The notes: generated by a model from the letters alone, not told the origin. A stretch of DNA of 64,000 bases from a virus (IMGVR_UViG_3300044707_000932:1-64000); one strand, 5' to 3'; shown: positions 2,537-49,744, counted from the stretch's first letter. Made by a program: numbers and translations.

Positions 2537-3996
2537 AAGTTTACTTTGCTACCAATTAGGAAAAAGGATAAAACGGGAAACTCAGGGTTTGTACTGAGAT
2601 TCAATTTATAATTAACATTGAATTTAAATCTCTTTGATATCTGATAATCAAACCCACTACCTAAAAACATACTGAATGTTCTATCGGTCACTGTCACTTT
2701 ATCGAAAGAAGAATAAACTACAGGAGTAGAAATTAAATAAATTTCAGGAGAGATTGTGAGCTTTTTGCTATAACTGAAAGGTCTTGTGTAAAATCCTGTA
2801 ACGGATGGTGAGATAAATAAATTACTATCTTCAGGCATTTTAACGAGAGCTCCACTGACGTTAAAACCTGTGATACCCCACTTTTTGGCGTTTATTATCA
2901 TACTATAACCAAGGAAAGAAAATATGTTTCCATATGAATAAGCACCTGTAAGATTTATATTATGAACGAATTTGAGGGTTCCTTTATCGTTCATCTTAAT
3001 CATGGTGTATCTTGAGTTGATTGCGAATTGTTTCAAGTTGAACCATACCATTCCCGTTACACCCCAAGAACTTGTACCCATTAGAGATGACCTTGCCATC
3101 CCTACATTTATGATTCCTGTGAAACTTTTATCAAGATTTTGTGCTGAAGTCAAATCAGACGAAACAATTATGGGATTAGAGTTTCCTGACTTTCCATTTT
3201 TTCCACCCTTACCACCACCACTCCCAGAACTTTCACTTCCCCTATCATTTCTGACATCTACATTCATGGCAGTCGTTGCCACCACTTCCGAACCTTCCTT
3301 GTTATCACTTTTATTATCTCCTGAACTATTACCACCGACACCGCCCCCATTAGAATTATTATTATTGTTATTACCTGTAGAAGCATTACCACTGTTTTGA
3401 GGATTGTTTTGAGAATTTCCACTATTTCCTTGAGCCCCTCCCACAGTAGATGTAGTGTTGCTTTGATTGTTTGGTGAAGTTGTCCCCCCATTTGAAGAAG
3501 TCCCATTAGAATTACTAGAATTAGAGGTATTGTTATTACGAGCACGATTATTTCTATTACTTTTTCCATTTTGTGAATTTGAATTTCCTTGTGATGCTGT
3601 GAGATTACCACCCCCCGCTGACATCGAAGCTCCTGCCATCACAGAGGAGTTTATTGAACTTACCACACTACTTACAACATTACCTATCACTTGAGATGTA
3701 ATTTGGTTCCTCGTAAGTGTTAAAGATTGTACGGAACATGGGGTGAGTTTTCTATAATCAGAGTAAACCTGATTTGTCCACGCGGCAAAAGCACCGCTGA
3801 TAACATCATCGGCGGTGAAAATTCTTGATTGACCGTAAAAATATATTACTGTATTACCCTGAATAGGAAGTGTAAATGTTGTGGTCTGTTTTGTACAAGG
3901 GTCTGTGAATGTTGTGGTCAATACTTGGGCATCAACTTTCGAGCTGAGAAAGAAGATACAAACAATACTTAAAAAAATTTTTAATCTTTTCCACAT
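2533..3996 (-). CDS. Secreted/outer-membrane protein with N/S/G low-complexity linker and C-terminal beta-barrel-like region
   Basis: Signal peptide; Asn/Ser/Gly-rich middle; alternating hydrophobic strands at the C-terminus. Confidence 0.55.
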   Translation of the reverse strand: MWKRLKIFLSIVCIFFLSSKVDAQVLTTTFTDPCTKQTTTFTLPIQGNTVIYFYGQSRIFTADDVISGAFAAWTNQVYSDYRKLTPCSVQSLTLTRNQITSQVIGNVVSSVVSSINSSVMAGASMSAGGGNLTASQGNSNSQNGKSNRNNRARNNNTSNSSNSNGTSSNGGTTSPNNQSNTTSTVGGAQGNSGNSQNNPQNSGNASTGNNNNNNSNGGGVGGNSSGDNKSDNKEGSEVVATTAMNVDVRNDRGSESSGSGGGKGGKNGKSGNSNPIIVSSDLTSAQNLDKSFTGIINVGMARSSLMGTSSWGVTGMVWFNLKQFAINSRYTMIKMNDKGTLKFVHNINLTGAYSYGNIFSFLGYSMIINAKKWGITGFNVSGALVKMPEDSNLFISPSVTGFYTRPFSYSKKLTISPEIYLISTPVVYSSFDKVTVTDRTFSMFLGSGFDYQISKRFKFNVNYKLNLSTNPEFPVLSFFLIGSKVNL

Positions 3997-31945: not shown

Positions 31946-32019
31946 TGGGAAGTGGCTCAGCCCGGTAGAGCACCTGGTTTGGGACCAGGGGGCCGCAGGT
32001 TCGAATCCTGTCTTCCCAA
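31946..32019 (+). tRNA. tRNA-Pro(UGG)
   Basis: CCTGG-TT-TGG-GA-CCAGG anticodon arm; GGTTCGAATCC. Confidence 0.95.
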
Positions 32020-32024
32020 CAAAC

Positions 32025-32096
32025 GTCTTCTTAGCTCAGCGGTAGAGCATCTCGCTGTTAACGAGAGGGTCCAAGGTTCGAGCCCTTGAGGGGACG
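32025..32096 (+). tRNA. tRNA-Asn(GUU)
   Basis: TCTCG-CT-GTT-AA-CGAGA; full cloverleaf. Confidence 0.93.
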
Positions 32097-32152
32097 CAAA
32101 GTGGAACAAACGTACAGTAACCACAGGGGTCCTAGGCCTCACTGTACTACAG

Positions 32153-32228
32153 GCGGAAGTAGCTCATTCGGTAGAGCACGACCTTGCCAAGGTCGGGGTG
32201 GCCAGTTCGAGCCTGGTCTTCCGCTCCA
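32153..32228 (+). tRNA. tRNA-Gly(GCC), CCA encoded
   Basis: CGACC-TT-GCC-AA-GGTCG; ends TCCA. Confidence 0.95.
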
Positions 32229-32233
32229 TATAA

Positions 32234-32300
32234 ATCCATCTACCCTCGCTTCATGCGGGGGTTATGTGAGATACCTTATGGTGTTAATAAAAAGATGGAT
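32234..32300 (+). ncRNA. Putative three-way-junction structured RNA between tRNA-Gly and tRNA-Thr
   Basis: ATCCATCT/AGATGGAT closing stem enclosing ACCCTCGC/GCGGGGGT and GATACC/GGTGTT hairpins. Confidence 0.5.
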
Positions 32301-32302
32301 AT

Positions 32303-32375
32303 GCCCGAGTAGCTCAGCAGGTAGAGCAACTGATTTGTAATCAGTAGGTCGCAGGTTCGATTCCTGTCTCTGGCT
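32303..32375 (+). tRNA. tRNA-Thr(UGU)
   Basis: ACTGA-TT-TGT-AA-TCAGT; one acceptor-stem mismatch. Confidence 0.92.
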
Positions 32376-32388
32376 CAAACTTATTTTT

Positions 32389-32622
32389 ATGGGAATACTA
32401 ACTTGTTATTATTTGGTTTGTTTACTTTATTGTCTCTTGATGTTGATTAAATCTTGGTCGCGGGATGTTATGACGGGAGGACTTGGAATAAGTCCTGGTC
32501 TCGATACTCTTGCTATTCTAATTATGTGTTGGGCACTCGCTCCTGTGGATGTCTATCTCCGTTGGACAAAGCTTTATAAAGAAGCTGAAGAGGCAAGAAG
32601 AAGAAATACTAAAGTTTTCTAA
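32389..32622 (+). CDS. Small two-TM membrane protein
   Basis: ORF track. Confidence 0.55.
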   Translation: MGILTCYYLVCLLYCLLMLIKSWSRDVMTGGLGISPGLDTLAILIMCWALAPVDVYLRWTKLYKEAEEARRRNTKVF

Positions 32623-32623
32623 T

Positions 32624-32977
32624 ATGGCACATCCAAACATTCACGCTAAAAGTTCCGCTAAGAAATTCGGTGGAAAACCTGAAGATTATATTCATCTACA
32701 TGAATGGTTAGATGAAACAAAAGGATGGTTTGGAGATTCTTTACACAGGATGTTCCGACACCATAGTGAGGGTATTTTTGAAATGGAGAAAAAATTTGGT
32801 ACTGAATTCAAGAATAGTGACGGTAAAACCGTTTATACCCGTTATGTTGGGGAACAACATGTAAAAGAAGATTGTAACAATTATATTCCGTCAGCGAAAG
32901 AATGGATAATTAATATCTCAGAGAAGAATAGACCGATTTGGATGTTGAAAACAGTCAAACTTGAATTCGAAGATTGA
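32624..32977 (+). CDS. DUF6915-like protein
   Basis: MAHPNIHAKSSAKKFGG.PEDY..LH.W.D..K, HR..RHHSEGIF, EQHVKED. Confidence 0.7.
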   Translation: MAHPNIHAKSSAKKFGGKPEDYIHLHEWLDETKGWFGDSLHRMFRHHSEGIFEMEKKFGTEFKNSDGKTVYTRYVGEQHVKEDCNNYIPSAKEWIINISEKNRPIWMLKTVKLEFED

Positions 32978-32989
32978 TATTTATTTGAT

Positions 32990-33472
32990 ATGATTTTAGA
33001 AATAACCAAATCACAACTTCAAAGGTTATTAGAAGCGAAACATGAAAACTTCAAACCCGCATTGGAGTTTGATAAAATACACGGTACATCACTTTCTCAA
33101 TCTTGGGATTTTAAAAAAGGGATTTCAACAGATGATGTTTGGGATATTATCCAAGATTGTTTTGAAGAAAGAAAGTGCAAAAAACTCGGATACCTTGTAG
33201 AGGATTTAGATGAGGATATATTTCCATATCCGAATGTAAAATCACTTCCAATCGAAACTAAAATTTCAATTATTCAGGGAATGGCAAGTGAACTAAACTA
33301 TGATGATATAGTTCACTTCGCAATCGAAAATAAAACAGGACTTACCGATAAAAAATTTAATAAATTTCATGACTCACTGAGTCCTAGACAACAACATGAA
33401 GTTCAATGGGTGAGTTCACCAAAAACCACCAAAATAATTAAAAATATTTTCAAAAATGAAAAAAAACATTAA
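32990..33472 (+). CDS. Hypothetical protein (ITKSQLQRLLE leader)
   Basis: ORF track; ATATTTAT upstream. Confidence 0.6.
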   Translation: MILEITKSQLQRLLEAKHENFKPALEFDKIHGTSLSQSWDFKKGISTDDVWDIIQDCFEERKCKKLGYLVEDLDEDIFPYPNVKSLPIETKISIIQGMASELNYDDIVHFAIENKTGLTDKKFNKFHDSLSPRQQHEVQWVSSPKTTKIIKNIFKNEKKH

Positions 33473-34157
33473 GTTACTCACCGAAGAAGATAAAAAAATA
33501 TTAAGAAGTTTTTCAAGATATGCTCAATCTTGGGGACTAAATGAAGTTGTGATTCGAATCGAAGACCAAGGTGAAGATTTGGAGGGTATGGAAATACCGA
33601 GTCATTTTGATAATGCTTACAATGTCAAATTTCCAAAGCCCCTTCATGATTTTCTTACTGATTTCAAAAATAGATTGGCAAAATTTGATTTGATTGAATC
33701 TCCTGACGTGGATGATTTGAACTATGAAGTTGTTGAAATAAGAATTGATGTTGAAGACGAACATATTGAATTTATTCATGATTTCTCATACACTCGAGGT
33801 TCTGAAGTTCGTGGAACGAGTTGGGATATCGAGGAAGATAAAGATGAACTTGAACCTCTCTTCGATGCGATAAAAAGTGAAGACCCATCAGAGGATTATT
33901 TACAGTTAAGATATTATGGTTCTGGTGATAGTGGTTATATAGAAGACAGTTTTGAGGGAGGTGACACAGTTCCTGATGTTGTAGAAGATTGGTGTTATCG
34001 AAAATTAGAAGGTATTCATGGTGGTTGGGAAATCAACGAAGGTTCAAGTGGTGAATTCAATTTTGACTTGGAACAAGGTGTTGTAAATTTGGAACATACT
34101 GAAATGTATGAAGAGAATGAAAGTGATACTTTTTACACCGAAAGTTTTGCTAAATAA
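33456..34157 (+). CDS. DUF6878-like acidic protein
   Basis: YYGSGDSGYIE...GGWEINEGSSGEF motif. Confidence 0.65.
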   Translation: MKKNIKLLTEEDKKILRSFSRYAQSWGLNEVVIRIEDQGEDLEGMEIPSHFDNAYNVKFPKPLHDFLTDFKNRLAKFDLIESPDVDDLNYEVVEIRIDVEDEHIEFIHDFSYTRGSEVRGTSWDIEEDKDELEPLFDAIKSEDPSEDYLQLRYYGSGDSGYIEDSFEGGDTVPDVVEDWCYRKLEGIHGGWEINEGSSGEFNFDLEQGVVNLEHTEMYEENESDTFYTESFAK

Positions 34158-34184
34158 AAAATTTTTCCTATTTTTATAGAAATT

Positions 34185-34270
34185 ACCTGAGTGTTGAAAT
34201 AGGTAGACAAGAGAGACTTAAAATCTCTTGGACAGAAATGTCCGTGCCGGTTCGACTCCGGCCTCAGGTA
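34185..34270 (+). tRNA. tRNA-Leu(UAA)
   Basis: AGAGA-CT-TAA-AA-TCTCT; long variable arm. Confidence 0.95.
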
Positions 34271-34284
34271 CAAAAAATATTTTT

Positions 34285-34500
34285 ATGGAAAGATTATTTT
34301 CCCCTGTGAGTCTTATTTCAATAACTGATAAATTGAAAGATAAGGCTTTAGAAATAAAATATATTGGTGACATATCCGACTTAGGGAATGAAGTCGGACA
34401 AACCGTTGGTGAATTTTATAAAAATATGAATGAAAATGAAATTGAATTATTCATTCAGGGATTTAGACACGGAGTTTCACTAACAAATGGTAATCACTAA
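34285..34500 (+). CDS. Hypothetical protein (MERLFSP...)
   Basis: ORF track, trimmed to the ATG after tRNA-Leu. Confidence 0.6.
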   Translation: MERLFSPVSLISITDKLKDKALEIKYIGDISDLGNEVGQTVGEFYKNMNENEIELFIQGFRHGVSLTNGNH

Positions 34501-34505
34501 TTGAC

Positions 34506-34586
34506 ACCCCGATGGCGGAACGGTAGACGCGTTGGTATTAGGAACCAATAACTTCGGTTGTGAGAGTTCGAGTCTCTCTTGGGGTA
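34506..34586 (+). tRNA. tRNA-Leu(UAG)
   Basis: TTGGT-AT-TAG-GA-ACCAA; variable arm AAC-TTCG-GTT. Confidence 0.93.
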
Positions 34587-34612
34587 CACTTTACACTTTT
34601 AGAAAATAGAAT

Positions 34613-34620
34613 ATATTTAT
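34613..34620 (+). promoter_or_regulatory. ATATTTAT phage promoter motif in front of the leader ORF
   Basis: Same motif lies shortly upstream of many genes on both strands in this window. Confidence 0.6.
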
Positions 34621-34626
34621 TACAGT

Positions 34627-34707
34627 ATGAAAACGATGAACTACAATATAGAAATTAGTCACCAACAAGAGATTTGTTGGGAGACTAACCTATGCGTAGT
34701 TCGGTAA
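34627..34707 (+). CDS. Putative attenuator leader peptide MKTMNYNIEISHQQEICWETNLCVVR
   Basis: 26-codon ORF; codons 8-19 match the anticodons of the 8 downstream tRNAs; its 3' end is the antiterminator strand. Confidence 0.8.
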   Translation: MKTMNYNIEISHQQEICWETNLCVVR

Positions 34708-34771
34708 TCTTTTAAACTCCTGAAGAGTTATATATACAACCTCGGACTACGCAAGTGGTTCGGGGTTTTTT
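34693..34771 (+). promoter_or_regulatory. Transcription attenuator: antiterminator (34693-34704 with 34742-34753) competing with a terminator
   Basis: TGCGTAGTTCGG pairs 12/12 (2 G-U) with TCGGACTACGCA, the 5' arm and loop of the terminator. Confidence 0.8.
34738..34771 (+). terminator. Intrinsic terminator upstream of the tRNA-Glu...tRNA-Ser array
   Basis: 13-bp stem AACCTCGGACTAC/GTGGTTCGGGGTT, GCAA tetraloop, U-tract. Confidence 0.88.
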
Positions 34772-34789
34772 ATTTTTCAGAAGTTTTTG

Positions 34790-34801
34790 GTTCTTTGAAA
34801 T
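34790..34801 (+). promoter_or_regulatory. boxA-like antitermination element
   Basis: GTTCTTTGAAAT between the terminator and tRNA-Glu; near-identical GTTCTTTGAAAA directly upstream of the tmRNA. Confidence 0.6.
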
Positions 34802-34826
34802 ATTGGTTGTAGTTTTGTAAAATAAC

Positions 34827-34898
34827 GCTCGGTTCGTCTAACGGTTAGGACACCACCCTTTCACGGTGGTGATACGGGTTCGATTCCCGTACCGAGTA
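34827..34898 (+). tRNA. tRNA-Glu(UUC)
   Basis: CCACC-CT-TTC-AC-GGTGG. Confidence 0.95.
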
Positions 34899-34912
34899 CA
34901 AAATAAATTTTT

Positions 34913-35128
34913 ATGAAATACATTTTAAGAGGTCATACTGTGTTTGAATATAAACCCGATGCTAAGTTTGATAAGGTGACACAACCTAAAGTAAATGGAT
35001 GGTGTCCTTGATTCGATTACTGTAGCATGATTGACGAGGACTATAAATTGTTAGGAGAATTTTTCAATATTGTTCATAGGCATACACAAGGAGAGGATGT
35101 GGAGTTAAAAGATATTGAAGTTTATTAA
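34913..35128 (+). pseudogene. 71-codon reading frame interrupted by one in-frame TGA (35009-35011): pseudogene or readthrough gene
   Basis: MKYILRGHTVFEYKPDAKFDKVTQPKVNGWCP*FDYCSMIDEDYKLLGEFFNIVHRHTQGEDVELKDIEVY fills the Glu-Cys spacer almost exactly. Confidence 0.5.
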
Positions 35129-35200
35129 GGTCGGGTGGCCGAGTGGCTTAGGCGAAGGTCTGCAAAACCTTCTACGTAGGTTCGATTCCTACTCTGACCT
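35129..35200 (+). tRNA. tRNA-Cys(GCA)
   Basis: AAGGT-CT-GCA-AA-ACCTT; U73 discriminator. Confidence 0.93.
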
Positions 35201-35207
35201 CGAACAT

Positions 35208-35279
35208 GGTGGTTGTAGCCTAATGGTAGGGCGGAAGTTTGTGGCACTTCATGTGAGAGTTCGATTCTCTCCAATCACA
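35208..35279 (+). tRNA. tRNA-His(GUG)
   Basis: GAAGT-TT-GTG-GC-ACTTC; encoded G-1. Confidence 0.9.
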
Positions 35280-35285
35280 CAAAAT

Positions 35286-35359
35286 GGAAGTATAGCTCAG
35301 CTGGTCAGAGCGCTATTCTGATACGATAGATGCCAGTGGTTCGAATCCACTTACTTCCA
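35286..35359 (+). tRNA. tRNA-Ile(GAU)
   Basis: CTATT-CT-GAT-AC-GATAG. Confidence 0.92.
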
Positions 35360-35360
35360 C

Positions 35361-35879
35361 ATGAGACGAAAAATTATTTTTATTGATGTTGACGGACCAC
35401 TAGCTTGGGCTACTTGGGGTGATGGAAGAGTTACGCTGAATGAGGCTTCCAAAACTTTCACCATCCCATACCCTTGGGTTGAAGAAGATTGTCAAGCATT
35501 ACAAAAAATTTGTAATGAAACAAATGCTTTTTTAGTTGTAAGTTCTGATTGGAGGAAACATTTCAGTATTATACAATTAAAAAGAATTTTTCAATACTAT
35601 GGTGTAACCGCACCAATTGTTGATATCACTACACATCAAGACCTATGGAATAAACTCAGTAGACCATCAATAGATTGGGAAAGAGCTGCGGAAGTTGTAA
35701 AATGGGCGAAAGATAACAAGATTTCGAATTGGATAGCAATTGACGATTTGAATCTAAAAAAAGAGTTCAAATGGATGAGAATACCACAATGGAGACATGT
35801 TCAGGTCGATGGAGATTGGGGTCAAGGTGGTAGACTCAGAGATAAAATTGATGAATGTATTAAAAAACTTGAAAGATGA
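35361..35879 (+). CDS. HAD-superfamily phosphatase, Swiss-Army-Knife RNA-repair-like HAD domain
   Basis: IIFIDVDGPL, VVSSDWR, WIAIDD motifs. Confidence 0.8.
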   Translation: MRRKIIFIDVDGPLAWATWGDGRVTLNEASKTFTIPYPWVEEDCQALQKICNETNAFLVVSSDWRKHFSIIQLKRIFQYYGVTAPIVDITTHQDLWNKLSRPSIDWERAAEVVKWAKDNKISNWIAIDDLNLKKEFKWMRIPQWRHVQVDGDWGQGGRLRDKIDECIKKLER

Positions 35880-36433
35880 AAATTAATAGAGATAGACTGG
35901 CCACTCTTCTGAAATATGCAAGATTGGACCAACAAAATGAAGAACTAACTGATAAACAGTTTGTAGAAAAACTTGCAAACTATATGGAAGTTAATCCTGA
36001 TTTTTTGGATTACCATGGAGTAAGTCATCCTGGTCGTTTCAGTTATCACACTGTCGGGTATGGTGTGTTTTCTCTTCTCGGAGAAAGATACAGAATGGGA
36101 AGAGTTGAAATATTCGACCGACAGCAAGATACAGGATATCCTGTTAGCGAAGGTGCTTATTGTATGCCACATGTTGCGGCAAATCAATTTGAAGATTTTA
36201 TTGAATCTTTGGAGACAGACCTTCCAATAAACATAGAAATAGGTTCTCACAAATGGTGTGAATATGAATGTGCAAAAGACCTTGGTTTTGAAAATGTGGA
36301 AGAAATGAGAGACCCTGAAAAAATCAAAGAATATCGTAAAAAGAAAAACGATATCTATGCGCAAGAACAGGGATATAAAGATTTTGATGATTTATTGAAA
36401 AATAGTAAATTTGGAAATCTTCTGGTAAAATGA
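35876..36433 (+). CDS. Hypothetical protein
   Basis: ORF track; ATGA overlap with the HAD gene. Confidence 0.65.
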   Translation: MKINRDRLATLLKYARLDQQNEELTDKQFVEKLANYMEVNPDFLDYHGVSHPGRFSYHTVGYGVFSLLGERYRMGRVEIFDRQQDTGYPVSEGAYCMPHVAANQFEDFIESLETDLPINIEIGSHKWCEYECAKDLGFENVEEMRDPEKIKEYRKKKNDIYAQEQGYKDFDDLLKNSKFGNLLVK

Positions 36434-36439
36434 TTACCC

Positions 36440-36512
36440 ACGTCTGTAGCTCAGTTGGTAGAGTACTAGTCTCCAAAACTAGTTGTCGGAGGTTCGAGCC
36501 CTCTCAGGCGTG
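36440..36512 (+). tRNA. tRNA-Trp(CCA)
   Basis: CTAGT-CT-CCA-AA-ACTAG; G73. Confidence 0.95.
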
Positions 36513-36527
36513 CTACATATAAAAATT

Positions 36528-36881
36528 ATGAAACCAAAAGAATTATTAAAATTATGGGTTGAAAGATTCAATCAATGCGATTACAAAGGATTGAGTGAAT
36601 TATATTCAGAAACAGCAGTGAATCATCAGACACCATTGGAAATTGTAGAAGGTAGAGAAAATATAAAACAAATGTTCAAAAATGAATTTGAACAATTTGA
36701 AATGGTTTGTATTGTTGAGAATATTTTTGAAGATGGTAATGTTGGAATTTTGGAATGGAAAGGAAATGAACAAAAACCATTAAGAGGTTGCGGATTTTTT
36801 TGGATTGAAAATGATAAAATTATTTATCAGAGAGGATATTGGGATAGAATGACTTTTATAGAACAACAAAAAGTAACGTGA
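36528..36881 (+). CDS. NTF2/SnoaL-like domain protein
   Basis: WVERFNQCD...LYSETAVNHQ...GRENI...LEW...RGCGFF..ENDKI..QRGYWD. Confidence 0.85.
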   Translation: MKPKELLKLWVERFNQCDYKGLSELYSETAVNHQTPLEIVEGRENIKQMFKNEFEQFEMVCIVENIFEDGNVGILEWKGNEQKPLRGCGFFWIENDKIIYQRGYWDRMTFIEQQKVT

Positions 36882-36889
36882 GTTCAAAA

Positions 36890-37094
36890 CTTCAGTTCCC
36901 ATACAGCGGTGAGATGGGCTAAGCAAGATACAATTCCTCGGAGCTGGGAGTAGAAGGCTGAAGAATTTTTTAGGTTGATTGGGGAAGGGATATACGTTAA
37001 CCTGATGATGGAGGTGGTATATTCGGAGTTGAAATCATCATAGTAATGCCAATCGTAAAAGGAGTTGTCCACTCGACCATCTTCTCCTTTCCTA
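36890..37094 (+). ncRNA. Putative structured non-coding RNA(s) upstream of tRNA-Ile2
   Basis: GC-enriched non-coding spacer with many complementary segments (see findings). Confidence 0.5.
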
Positions 37095-37097
37095 TAA

Positions 37098-37171
37098 GGA
37101 CCCCTAGCTCAGCAGGTTAGAGCAACTGACTCATAATCAGTAGGTCCACGGTTCGAGCCCGTGGGGGTCCA
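37098..37171 (+). tRNA. tRNA-Ile2(CAU), lysidine type reading AUA (elongator Met less likely)
   Basis: ACTGA-CT-CAT-AA-TCAGT; acceptor GGACCCC/GGGGTCC with C4-G69 and C5-G68 as in Ile2; lacks initiator features. Confidence 0.85.
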
Positions 37172-37243
37172 CAAGACAGACACACGCTTCCCATCTCGAA
37201 GGATAATGAGAGGAATAATACGTCCTTTAATGTCTGTCCCTAT

Positions 37244-37314
37244 TGTCGTATGGTGTAACGGTAACACAACAGATTTTGGTTCTGTTTTTCAAGGTTCGAA
37301 TCCTTGTGCGACAA
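37244..37314 (+). tRNA. tRNA-Gln(UUG)
   Basis: ACAGA-TT-TTG-GT-TCTGT; U1-A72. Confidence 0.95.
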
Positions 37315-37336
37315 CCGATATTTATATTAAAAAGAA

Positions 37337-37552
37337 ATGAGATTAATTATTTCAGAAGAAGAAAAAAAAGAAATACTCTCCAAACATAAGAGTCCGAAAC
37401 CAAAATCTGTAAAAGAGATTGAACAAGAAATTGATGAGATTGAAAAAAAATTGGGCAAGACAAAAAAGGAAACTAAAGAAGTTGATTTTGATGAACTTGT
37501 GAATACGGATATGGACTTAGAAATGGATAGAGATAGTTTGGAACAATCTTAA
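37337..37552 (+). CDS. Small protein with ISEEEKKEILSKH leader
   Basis: ORF track; ATATTTAT upstream. Confidence 0.65.
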   Translation: MRLIISEEEKKEILSKHKSPKPKSVKEIEQEIDEIEKKLGKTKKETKEVDFDELVNTDMDLEMDRDSLEQS

Positions 37553-37597
37553 TAATATTTGTCATAATTTTAACCTATCTTTGTACAAATTAATTTT

Positions 37598-37888
37598 ATG
37601 AATGAAGTTGGTTTGATAGGTAGTTTACTCTTAACATTCTGTGGTTTACCAGAACTCATTAGGACCCTCAAAAATCGAAGATGTGATATTGGGTGGGGTT
37701 TCCTCCTCATGTGGTTTTTTGGGGAGTTATTTTGTGTCTTTTATGGGTTAGATTTAAGAGAGATACCTTTACTCATAAATTATAGTTTCAATTTGACCAT
37801 AGTTGGGGTTATGTTATACTTCAAAATTAAGGGAGAGTTGCCTGAGTGGTTAAAGGAGCAGTTTGCTAAACTGTGGTCGAGCAATTGA
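37598..37888 (+). CDS. PQ-loop/SemiSWEET-like three-TM protein; 3' end overlaps tRNA-Ser
   Basis: GLIGSLLLTFCGLPELIRT...PLLINY motif. Confidence 0.7.
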   Translation: MNEVGLIGSLLLTFCGLPELIRTLKNRRCDIGWGFLLMWFFGELFCVFYGLDLREIPLLINYSFNLTIVGVMLYFKIKGELPEWLKEQFAKLWSSN

Positions 37889-37916
37889 CCCATTGGTTCG
37901 AATCCAATACTCTCCG
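37832..37916 (+). tRNA. tRNA-Ser(GCU)
   Basis: GCAGT-TT-GCT-AA-ACTGT; long variable arm; G73. Confidence 0.93.
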
Positions 37917-38013
37917 CAGATTTATTGTCGCAGAATCATTTGACGTTTTGAAGGTATTTTTATATATTTATAATCTGATAGTTTAAAAAACATTAACTAA
38001 AAAAAACAAAAAA

Positions 38014-49281: not shown

Positions 49282-49676
49282 TGGTGGACTCGAGCGGAGT
49301 CGAACCGCTGTCTTGTTCGCGATAACTATAAGTGCCTACACGTTTATTACAACATTGTTTCTCAATGTTCCGAAATATTAGGTTTGATATTTGTGAGAAA
49401 CCCACCTACAAACAACTTGGTCTCAGAATTATTTTAAACGAGCTCTGACCTGTCACCCGTATATCGGACTTCTGTTCCTGGGTTTAATGTCCTAACCGAC
49501 CCGATTTAGTTACTACTAAATCAAGCAGCAACTACAGCTTCCTCAGCGATAAGACCAAGAGCAGCCATTTTAGCAAAAGTATTGCCAGTTATGTTTCAAA
49601 TCAGTTTTTAAGGAGTTAATTCAGCTCCTACGTGCCACCTATAACTACACACGCCAATCAATGCCGTGACGAGCCC
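49282..49676 (-). ncRNA. ssrA: tmRNA; tag reading frame 49586-49521 encodes (A)GNTFAKMAALGLIAEEAVVAA
   Basis: 5' GGGCTCG pairs with 3' CGAGTCC-ACCA including G3-U70; GGTTCGACTCC T-arm; ATAACT-GGC resume context; tag ends AA-stop. Confidence 0.93.
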
Positions 49677-49679
49677 ATA

Positions 49680-49691
49680 TTTTCAAAGAAC
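49680..49691 (-). promoter_or_regulatory. boxA-like element upstream of tmRNA
   Basis: GTTCTTTGAAAA between the TATATTTG promoter and the tmRNA 5' end. Confidence 0.6.
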
Positions 49692-49744
49692 AATACAAAT
49701 ATAGTATAAATAACTTTAAAATCAAAAAAACATATTTATATACA

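Follow-up and report, generated by a model that had tools for sequence, protein, structure and literature searches.

Evidence for a probable ribosome-mediated attenuator whose leader samples the tRNAs of a jumbo phage tRNA array

Introduction

The attenuators of the E. coli thr, ilvGMEDA, ilvBN, trp, his and leu operons have in common a short leader open reading frame (ORF) and RNA segments capable of alternative pairing, 1:2 as protector, 2:3 as antiterminator and 3:4 as terminator. Ribosomes stalling on hungry codons free segment 2, the leader codons name the product of the operon and, in the case of thr and ilv, a single leader responds to more than one amino acid. A unit of the same layout, with translation of its leader predicted and both the stalling and the multiple sensing proposed, is present on the + strand at positions 34590-34778 of a 64,000-nucleotide stretch of viral DNA (IMGVR_UViG_3300044707_000932:1-64000, hereafter the window), where it is accompanied by an array of phage tRNA genes that its leader codons appear to name. 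Comparison of sequences makes it probable that this is a ribosome-mediated attenuator whose leader has been selected to sample the tRNAs of the array. Confidence in the attenuator architecture alone is higher, and it is established as far as such comparison allows. What is new relative to classical attenuation is the target, tRNA genes and not biosynthetic enzymes, a 'sampler' leader lacking tandem runs and offering one or two codons for each of 8-20 tRNA species, the phage origin and a nearly leaderless mRNA; a further difference, in the window, is a promoter behind the terminator.

In coupling genes of the translation apparatus to the state of specific tRNAs via a terminator and an antiterminator, the proposed system is also akin to the pheST attenuator and to T-boxes. 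The former, however, has a Phe-rich leader that responds to a single amino acid, and its target is a synthetase; the latter bind uncharged tRNA directly and lack a leader ORF (no T-box model matched the window). To our knowledge, the control of phage tRNA genes is essentially undescribed. What large phage tRNA sets are for is still debated: they may compensate for codon usage, or they may make good those tRNAs that host shut-off or anticodon nucleases have removed. Leader-peptide attenuation signals have been reported from Flavobacterium (PMC9723704). A study that sees large phage tRNA sets as a means of countering the anticodon nucleases of the host (PMC10264068) is pertinent for the size of the tRNA set and because a gene of RNA-repair type is embedded in the present array, but its subject is the escape of tRNA sequences and not array regulation. 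Full-text literature searches turned up no description of a phage tRNA array under attenuator control.

The window comes from an IMG/VR virus record of 99 kb, estimated to be ~32% complete; complete relatives are 317-321 kb long, and the clade is one of freshwater jumbo phages of ~320 kb, with hosts that are probably Bacteroidota. No close relative of the window phage was found in the GenBank phage collection, so neither a cultured host nor an existing annotation provides guidance. Comparison was instead with more than 60 related loci drawn from IMG/VR through a neighbouring HAD-domain protein and through exact-pattern scans. The close set comprises 16 distinct versions of the leader region, 74-88% identical; for the distant set, loci were scanned for the order short ORF, terminator, tRNA; and for long leaders a protein search yielded 74 clusters, all unnamed, from which 70 distinct leaders were counted. 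Some pattern matches (L074, L083, L086, L089-91 and L093) proved to be unrelated coding sequence and were dropped as leaders.

The leader ORF and its promoter

The leader ORF (34627-34707, + strand) runs from an ATG at 34627 to a TAA at 34705-07 and has 26 codons, as first annotated, and the identity of codons 8-19, said there to be decoded without exception by tRNAs encoded downstream, is likewise as first read. In this frame none of the 16 close variants has an in-frame stop; stops number 1-5 in the other two frames. Close variants retain the ATG and 26-32 open codons, apart from a degenerate copy in L050 that has lost the ATG, and the frame is open in ~85 more distant variants also. The pattern is that of a leader maintained as coding, and its translation is predicted. 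Conservation is concentrated in codons 7-18, the putative sensor window, with H7, I8 and S11 followed by Q-Q-E-I-C-W, a core within which changes are synonymous only, excepting the degenerate copy in L088. The 3′ end of the ORF behaves differently: a conserved nucleotide string, GTAGTYC, is read in differing frames, which indicates constraint there on the RNA and not on the peptide. The leaders matched nothing in Pfam or PHROGs.

The diverged L088 copy (L088:2990-3150) has Q14E and W18C substitutions and a weak terminator. Small protein ORFs lie downstream of it, and the copy is a remnant in decay or else a regulatory cassette put to a second use. Searches with nhmmer found no second leader copy in the 99-kb record and, short fragments aside, none in the complete 317-321 kb relatives.

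A promoter-like site is present before the leader, where a promoter motif had been placed. The predicted promoter (34590-34619, + strand) consists of a -35/-33-like TTTACA (34590-95) and the box TATATTTA (34612-19), and viewed as TTTACA-16-TATATT (34590-34617) matches a sigma-70-like site at 10 of 12 positions. In all leader types the box is 5-7 nt 5′ of the ATG; with a transcript start predicted at ~34624 the mRNA would be nearly leaderless. For comparison, the Flavobacterium sigmaA -7 box, TAnnTTTG, occupies positions -12 to -5 (PMC9723704).

Alternative helices

The terminator forecast by the initial annotation is a 13-pair stem (34738-34767; 6 G-C and 3 G-U pairs) with a GCAA loop and a U-tract after it, segments 3 and 4 together with the tract occupying 34738-34778; its hairpin has a predicted free energy (dG) of -19.5, and 90.8% of cells are paired across variants. 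The proposed antiterminator pairing is equally as described: segment 2, the last four sense codons (34693-34704), is complementary to 34742-34753 at 12 of 12 positions, two of them G-U, and the duplex has a dG of -18.9 and a z-score of -5. Across variants 87.8% of cells in this helix are paired and three pairs have changed on both sides; the covariation score of 0.229 compares with 0.153 in shuffles, none of 500 of which reaches it. Compensatory changes, proposed at the outset as a check on the antiterminator and terminator, are thus seen in close variants, and they are seen family-wide also, the paired 8-mers of the wider family differing by lineage yet staying complementary, e.g. GTCAGGGT with ACCCTGAC and, in a second lineage, GTTAGAGG with CCTCTAAC. 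The antiterminator strand is always within the 3′ end of the ORF or straddles its stop codon.

Segment 1, the protector strand (34638-34661), pairs with segment 2 in the minimum free energy structure of the untranslated RNA (ViennaRNA), a long rod (34638-44 : 34696-702) that together with the terminator amounts to -49.7 kcal/mol. The protector rod is present in all 15 folded variants (z -1.2 to -4.9), and at its tip is hairpin H1 (34663-34679), whose 6-bp stem overlaps the Q-Q-E-I-C-W codons and belongs to the RNAalifold consensus, 97.8% of cells being paired. Two changes in H1 in L087 were considered as compensatory and rejected on pair counting (one yields a G-U pair, the other a broken pair); both are synonymous yet uncompensated, which points to a constraint on coding there as well.

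The antiterminator conformer is near in energy, -46.5 versus -49.7 kcal/mol. When a ribosome footprint is masked at codons 8, 12 or 18 it becomes the minimum-energy fold, and with masking at codons 15, 17, 19, 22 or the stop codon the terminator has the lowest energy. At codons 15 and 17 this result stems from re-pairing of segment 1 behind the ribosome, perhaps a sterically unrealistic event. In all variants the first base of codon 18 is 12-16 nt before the antiterminator strand, so that the sensor window ends where a stalled ribosome would start to cover segment 2. This geometry, judged by its conservation among the variants, is the classical four-segment layout of trp-type attenuators. Comparison of the window with Rfam (cmscan, gathering thresholds) gave only tRNAs and a transfer-messenger RNA (tmRNA), with no leader or T-box family.

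As proposed, the nearly leaderless transcript starting at ~34624 would encode the 26-codon peptide. In RNA free of ribosomes, segment 1 would pair with segment 2 and the terminator would form, as it would also when a ribosome running to the stop codon covers segment 2. A stall at any point up to codon 18, for want of the cognate charged tRNA, would allow segment 2 to pair with the 5′ arm of the terminator and RNA polymerase to continue into the tRNA genes. With a leader sampling, by one or two codons apiece, the tRNA species supplied by the array, shortage of any sampled tRNA would raise transcription of the array, which would constitute negative feedback.

Between segments 2 and 3 is a further element (34715-34737) comprising hairpin H2 (34715-29) and an invariant 19-nt block (34719-37) made up of the H2 loop, in which GAA is displayed, its 3′ side and an AT-rich tail. 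A protein or another RNA may bind this block. Its interpretation as a repeated promoter was rejected, there being no second copy in the window, as was a T-box-like reading of the GAA, which is at chance level.

Leader codons and the tRNAs of the array

The 14 codons read by the eight downstream tRNAs make up 22.8% of the codons in the long ORFs of the phage. A run of 12 such codons is expected 0.0025-0.004 times per window in six frames; that of the leader is the longest in the window, and the next is 7. In close relatives, comparison of codons 7-19 with the tRNAs encoded downstream gives 148 concordant cells versus 132.5 +/- 4.2 in re-paired controls and 140.8 +/- 3.3 in within-group shuffles (p = 0.03). 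Codons from 20 to the end, an internal control, give 60 versus 59, i.e. no agreement. For the 31 unique leader/array pairs of the whole family the figures are 526 concordant cells versus 444 +/- 14, and synonymous choice favours the isoacceptor present (224 readable codons versus 161 expected). Leader length and number of tRNA species are not significantly related (rho = 0.29, p = 0.11).

There are also individual contrasts. L099 and L112/L095 are identical over ~250 nt that include promoter, ORF, spacer and terminator except for GGT>TAT at codon 18, and the sole difference in their tRNAs is a tRNA-Tyr gene, the first after the terminator, in the lineage with TAT. L002 and L006 differ in four leader codons, among them F10 versus I10, and their sole tRNA difference is tRNA-Phe. 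Among the close relatives, K12 occurs only where tRNA-Lys is downstream, apart from L013, which has lost its tRNA-Lys (Fisher p = 0.004, uncorrected for phylogeny). In the S type, V, Y, F and E are missing from the leader, and tRNAs for Val, Tyr, Phe and Lys from the array (hypergeometric p = 0.013). At the other extreme, arrays of the L type cover all 20 amino acids, and all 20 occur in 69 of the 70 distinct long leaders, whereas a random 52-mer of phage composition would hold them 2.8% of the time and column-preserving shuffles yield 53.7 +/- 2.6 such leaders, the highest of 2000 shuffles reaching 63. Where Cys has been lost at its usual column, in 15 long leaders, 14 carry it at one of four other columns. 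In 66 of the 69, moreover, all 20 amino acids are present at least 4 codons upstream of the antiterminator codons, within ~40 residues, for which the random expectation is ~0.4%. Selection for each amino acid regardless of its position is predicted for a codon sampler and not for a folded or arrest peptide. The Tyr, Phe, S-type and all-20 observations also lean less on shared inheritance of leader and array than do the aggregate counts. Co-variation of leader codons with tRNA content, the comparison by which the initial annotation was to be judged, is accordingly positive in the instances of Tyr, Cys, V/Y/F and K12. A strict one-to-one correspondence in close relatives fails: Gln codons are kept where tRNA-Gln is missing, and recent deletions are unmirrored.

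Leaders at the heads of distant arrays

In distant relatives homologous leader units of 22-54 codons are at the very head of dense tRNA arrays. They are of type S (22 codons), M (38 codons) and L (44-54 codons), plus single variants, and share with the leader in the window M1, K/N2, T3, H7, a W at 17/18 and the overall layout. In each of them the antiterminator strand, of 6-10 bp, is either contained in the ORF or runs across its end. The terminator stem mostly ends 8-20 nt before the first tRNA, a gap in which a promoter would not fit, with longer gaps in L039, L044 and L103. In S, M and L units there is no promoter between the terminator and the tRNAs; in the window and its close relatives there is a promoter motif at that position.

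The junction of leader and array shows other variation. In L103 (~3700-3800, - strand) and L087 a promoter-like block resembling that of tRNA-Glu is inserted just past the leader terminator, and the first tRNA is lost or displaced, which suggests repeated remodelling of the junction in some lineages.

In data from JGI, ENA and NCBI the 50-54-residue leaders (P0001-P0074) bear the label 'hypothetical protein', in some cases with spurious N-terminal extensions to 68-87 residues, and so have been mis-annotated as ordinary small proteins.

Promoters behind the terminator

The Bacteroidota sigmaA-type motif TTTG-N18-22-TAnnTTTG occurs 20 times in the window, versus 3.97 +/- 1.82 expected, and is found directly 5′ of tRNA-Glu, tRNA-Trp, tRNA-Arg and the tmRNA gene. 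That of tRNA-Glu, TTTG-N20-TAGTTTTG (34786-34817, + strand; predicted start ~34822), is in a block kept in all close relatives. (An extended -33 motif around it was not enriched and was dropped.) With this promoter behind the terminator, readthrough in the window phage can only supplement basal expression driven from it.

Counter-evidence and other explanations

Several observations weigh against the proposal that the leader samples the array, and they are of different kinds. Motifs at 34786-34817, from terminator to tRNA-Glu, and at 36383-36413, before tRNA-Trp, mean that tRNAs could here be expressed in the absence of readthrough and that the attenuator is not their sole gate; the array is not one operon, the initial claim of one terminator gating all eight tRNAs is not supported in the face of these conserved promoters, and confidence that the attenuator gates all eight in the window is lower than for the attenuator as such. 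Losses of tRNA genes that the leader does not mirror are seen in L013 (versus L014), L105/L026, L108, L103 and L012, and L003, L005 and L006, on contigs of 55-62 kb, lack tRNA-Gln and yet have 2-3 Gln codons. These could be tolerated if the losses are recent and useless sensor codons nearly neutral, with the index not a strict one. Gly codons match the Gly isoacceptor present in 0 of 14 cases, K2 is unmatched in arrays lacking tRNA-Lys, and leaders match their own array no better than the larger arrays of other variants, a matrix that is uninformative because large arrays are supersets. Having one or two codons per tRNA, with no tandem runs beyond Q-Q, makes the sensitivity uncertain. All concordance statistics share the phylogenetic non-independence of a leader and array that are inherited together, and few contrasts are both clean and independent, namely Tyr, Phe and two or three instances of Lys. 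The 19-nt block at 34719-37, (nearly) invariant in 15 variants while its flanks vary, is not accounted for by the model, and the L088 copy is 45 kb away from the tRNA cluster of its contig.

A genuine attenuator might instead sense, in a general way, how fast translation runs or how well amino acids are supplied, responding to starvation or ribosome availability and not tuned to phage tRNAs, with the match of codons and tRNAs a by-product of ancestry and AT-rich codon bias. The evidence for the architecture serves that explanation just as well, and the many tRNA deletions that leave the leader unchanged, the Gln codons persisting where tRNA-Gln is missing and matches to own arrays that are no better than to others all speak for it. 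It is nevertheless considered unlikely: it would not lead one to expect GGT>TAT to coincide with gain of tRNA-Tyr, Cys to relocate while all 20 amino acids are kept, V, Y and F to be missing from a leader along with the corresponding tRNAs from its array, synonymous codons to favour the isoacceptor present, or concordance to vanish beyond the sensor window.

The promoter layout in the window, taken alone, favoured a small gene plus an insulating terminator, that is, a self-contained gene for a micro-protein or structured small RNA that merely shields the next promoter, with the tRNAs driven by promoters of their own and no regulatory link. In keeping with this, the unit in the window has a promoter of its own, a strong terminator and a conserved promoter behind it, the copy in L088 is far from tRNAs and the invariant 19-nt block suggests sequence-specific recognition. 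A covarying helix mutually exclusive with the terminator is foreign to such a gene, as are an ORF that always crosses the antiterminator strand, in differing frames, a terminator adjoining the first tRNA in distant relatives, an unconserved peptide C-terminus and an amino-acid coverage pattern unlike that of a folded peptide, and the explanation is regarded as quite improbable. Even less credence is given to an arrest-peptide attenuator of TnaC or Erm-leader type, in which nascent H7...Q-Q-E-I-C-W would stall the ribosome on a small molecule or factor irrespective of tRNA supply. The strong amino-acid conservation of the core, where changes are confined to synonymous ones, and the invariance of H7 and W17/18 across all leader types are what such a peptide would have; residues besides H7 and W vary freely between leader types, however, the spacing from motif to stop ranges over 8-14 codons, and neither the all-20 coverage nor the Tyr and Phe contrasts are predicted by it. 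A leader sampling the tRNAs of its array is thus the reading carried forward here. Its conserved ORF, covarying alternative helices, geometry and link of codons to tRNAs emerge from comparing natural variants; translation of the leader, stalling on it, the direction of the switch and feedback are inferred.

The array and its surroundings

There are 16 tRNAs and one tmRNA in the window (ARAGORN, Rfam), with the + strand array spanning 31946-37917 and having small protein genes interspersed. The eight tRNAs downstream of the leader are those originally listed: Glu(UUC), Cys(GCA), His(GUG) and Ile(GAU) within 34827-35360, Trp(CCA) at 36440-36513 following its internal promoter motif (36383-36413, the two together 36383-36513), and CAU, Gln(UUG) and Ser(GCU) within 37098-37917. 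The initial annotation, which had described the array as downstream of the leader, needs correction in that six further tRNAs (Pro, Asn, Gly, Thr, Leu-UAA and Leu-UAG) are upstream of it on the same strand; the leader unit is mid-array in this window. The CAU tRNA is present as claimed, and its identity may be Ile2 (lysidine-modified) or Met: C4-G69 and C5-G68 pairs, and a tRNA-Ile as the sole full-length E. coli BLAST match, are a weak hint of Ile2. The spacers flanking it (36890-37097 and 37173-37243) are G+C-richer and apparently structured; they had no match in Rfam at gathering thresholds.

Array content is generally reshuffled one gene at a time across relatives. The tRNA-Leu(UAG) gene (34506-34587), present in the window, is precisely missing from L003/L004 with both flanks intact, and the difference is a clean single-tRNA insertion or deletion. 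All 74 nt of tRNA-Glu (34827-34900) are found letter-identical in river metatranscriptome contigs with unrelated flanks, and another organism, possibly of the host lineage, may carry an identical tRNA-Glu. Four public runs of RNA or possible RNA yielded only tRNA-like contigs of other organisms; they leave the leader uncovered and are uninformative as to expression.

The ORF at 35361-35879, inside the array, encodes a HAD domain of the 'Swiss Army Knife' RNA-repair type (PF18143, E = 8e-19). It is kept in all 60 related loci, with 57-98% identity and mostly between the same tRNAs, and its product may act in tRNA repair. The phage tmRNA gene (49282-49726, - strand) specifies an unusual 21-residue tag and is preceded by a TTTG/TAnnTTTG promoter motif (49696-49726).

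Implications

At the level of annotation the gain is immediate, since the leaders are already public as unnamed 'hypothetical proteins' (74 clusters) and their description can be improved at once. For the clade as a whole it is more likely than not, with somewhat less confidence than for the window unit itself, that these jumbo phages autoregulate their tRNA arrays by means of sampler leaders covering every encoded tRNA, up to 20 amino acids in ~40 codons, such that a stall at any of them would open the attenuator. The phage would thereby gauge and top up the decoding capacity of the infected cell, perhaps including that lost with tRNAs destroyed by host or phage. A link to host tRNA nucleases is conjecture, for which the RNA-repair-type gene in the array is the sole circumstantial support. 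If the proposal is correct, tRNA genes themselves would here have their first described feedback circuit, classical attenuation would extend from 1-3 amino acids to up to twenty inputs, and readthrough in a reporter could read out which tRNA pools become limiting during infection.

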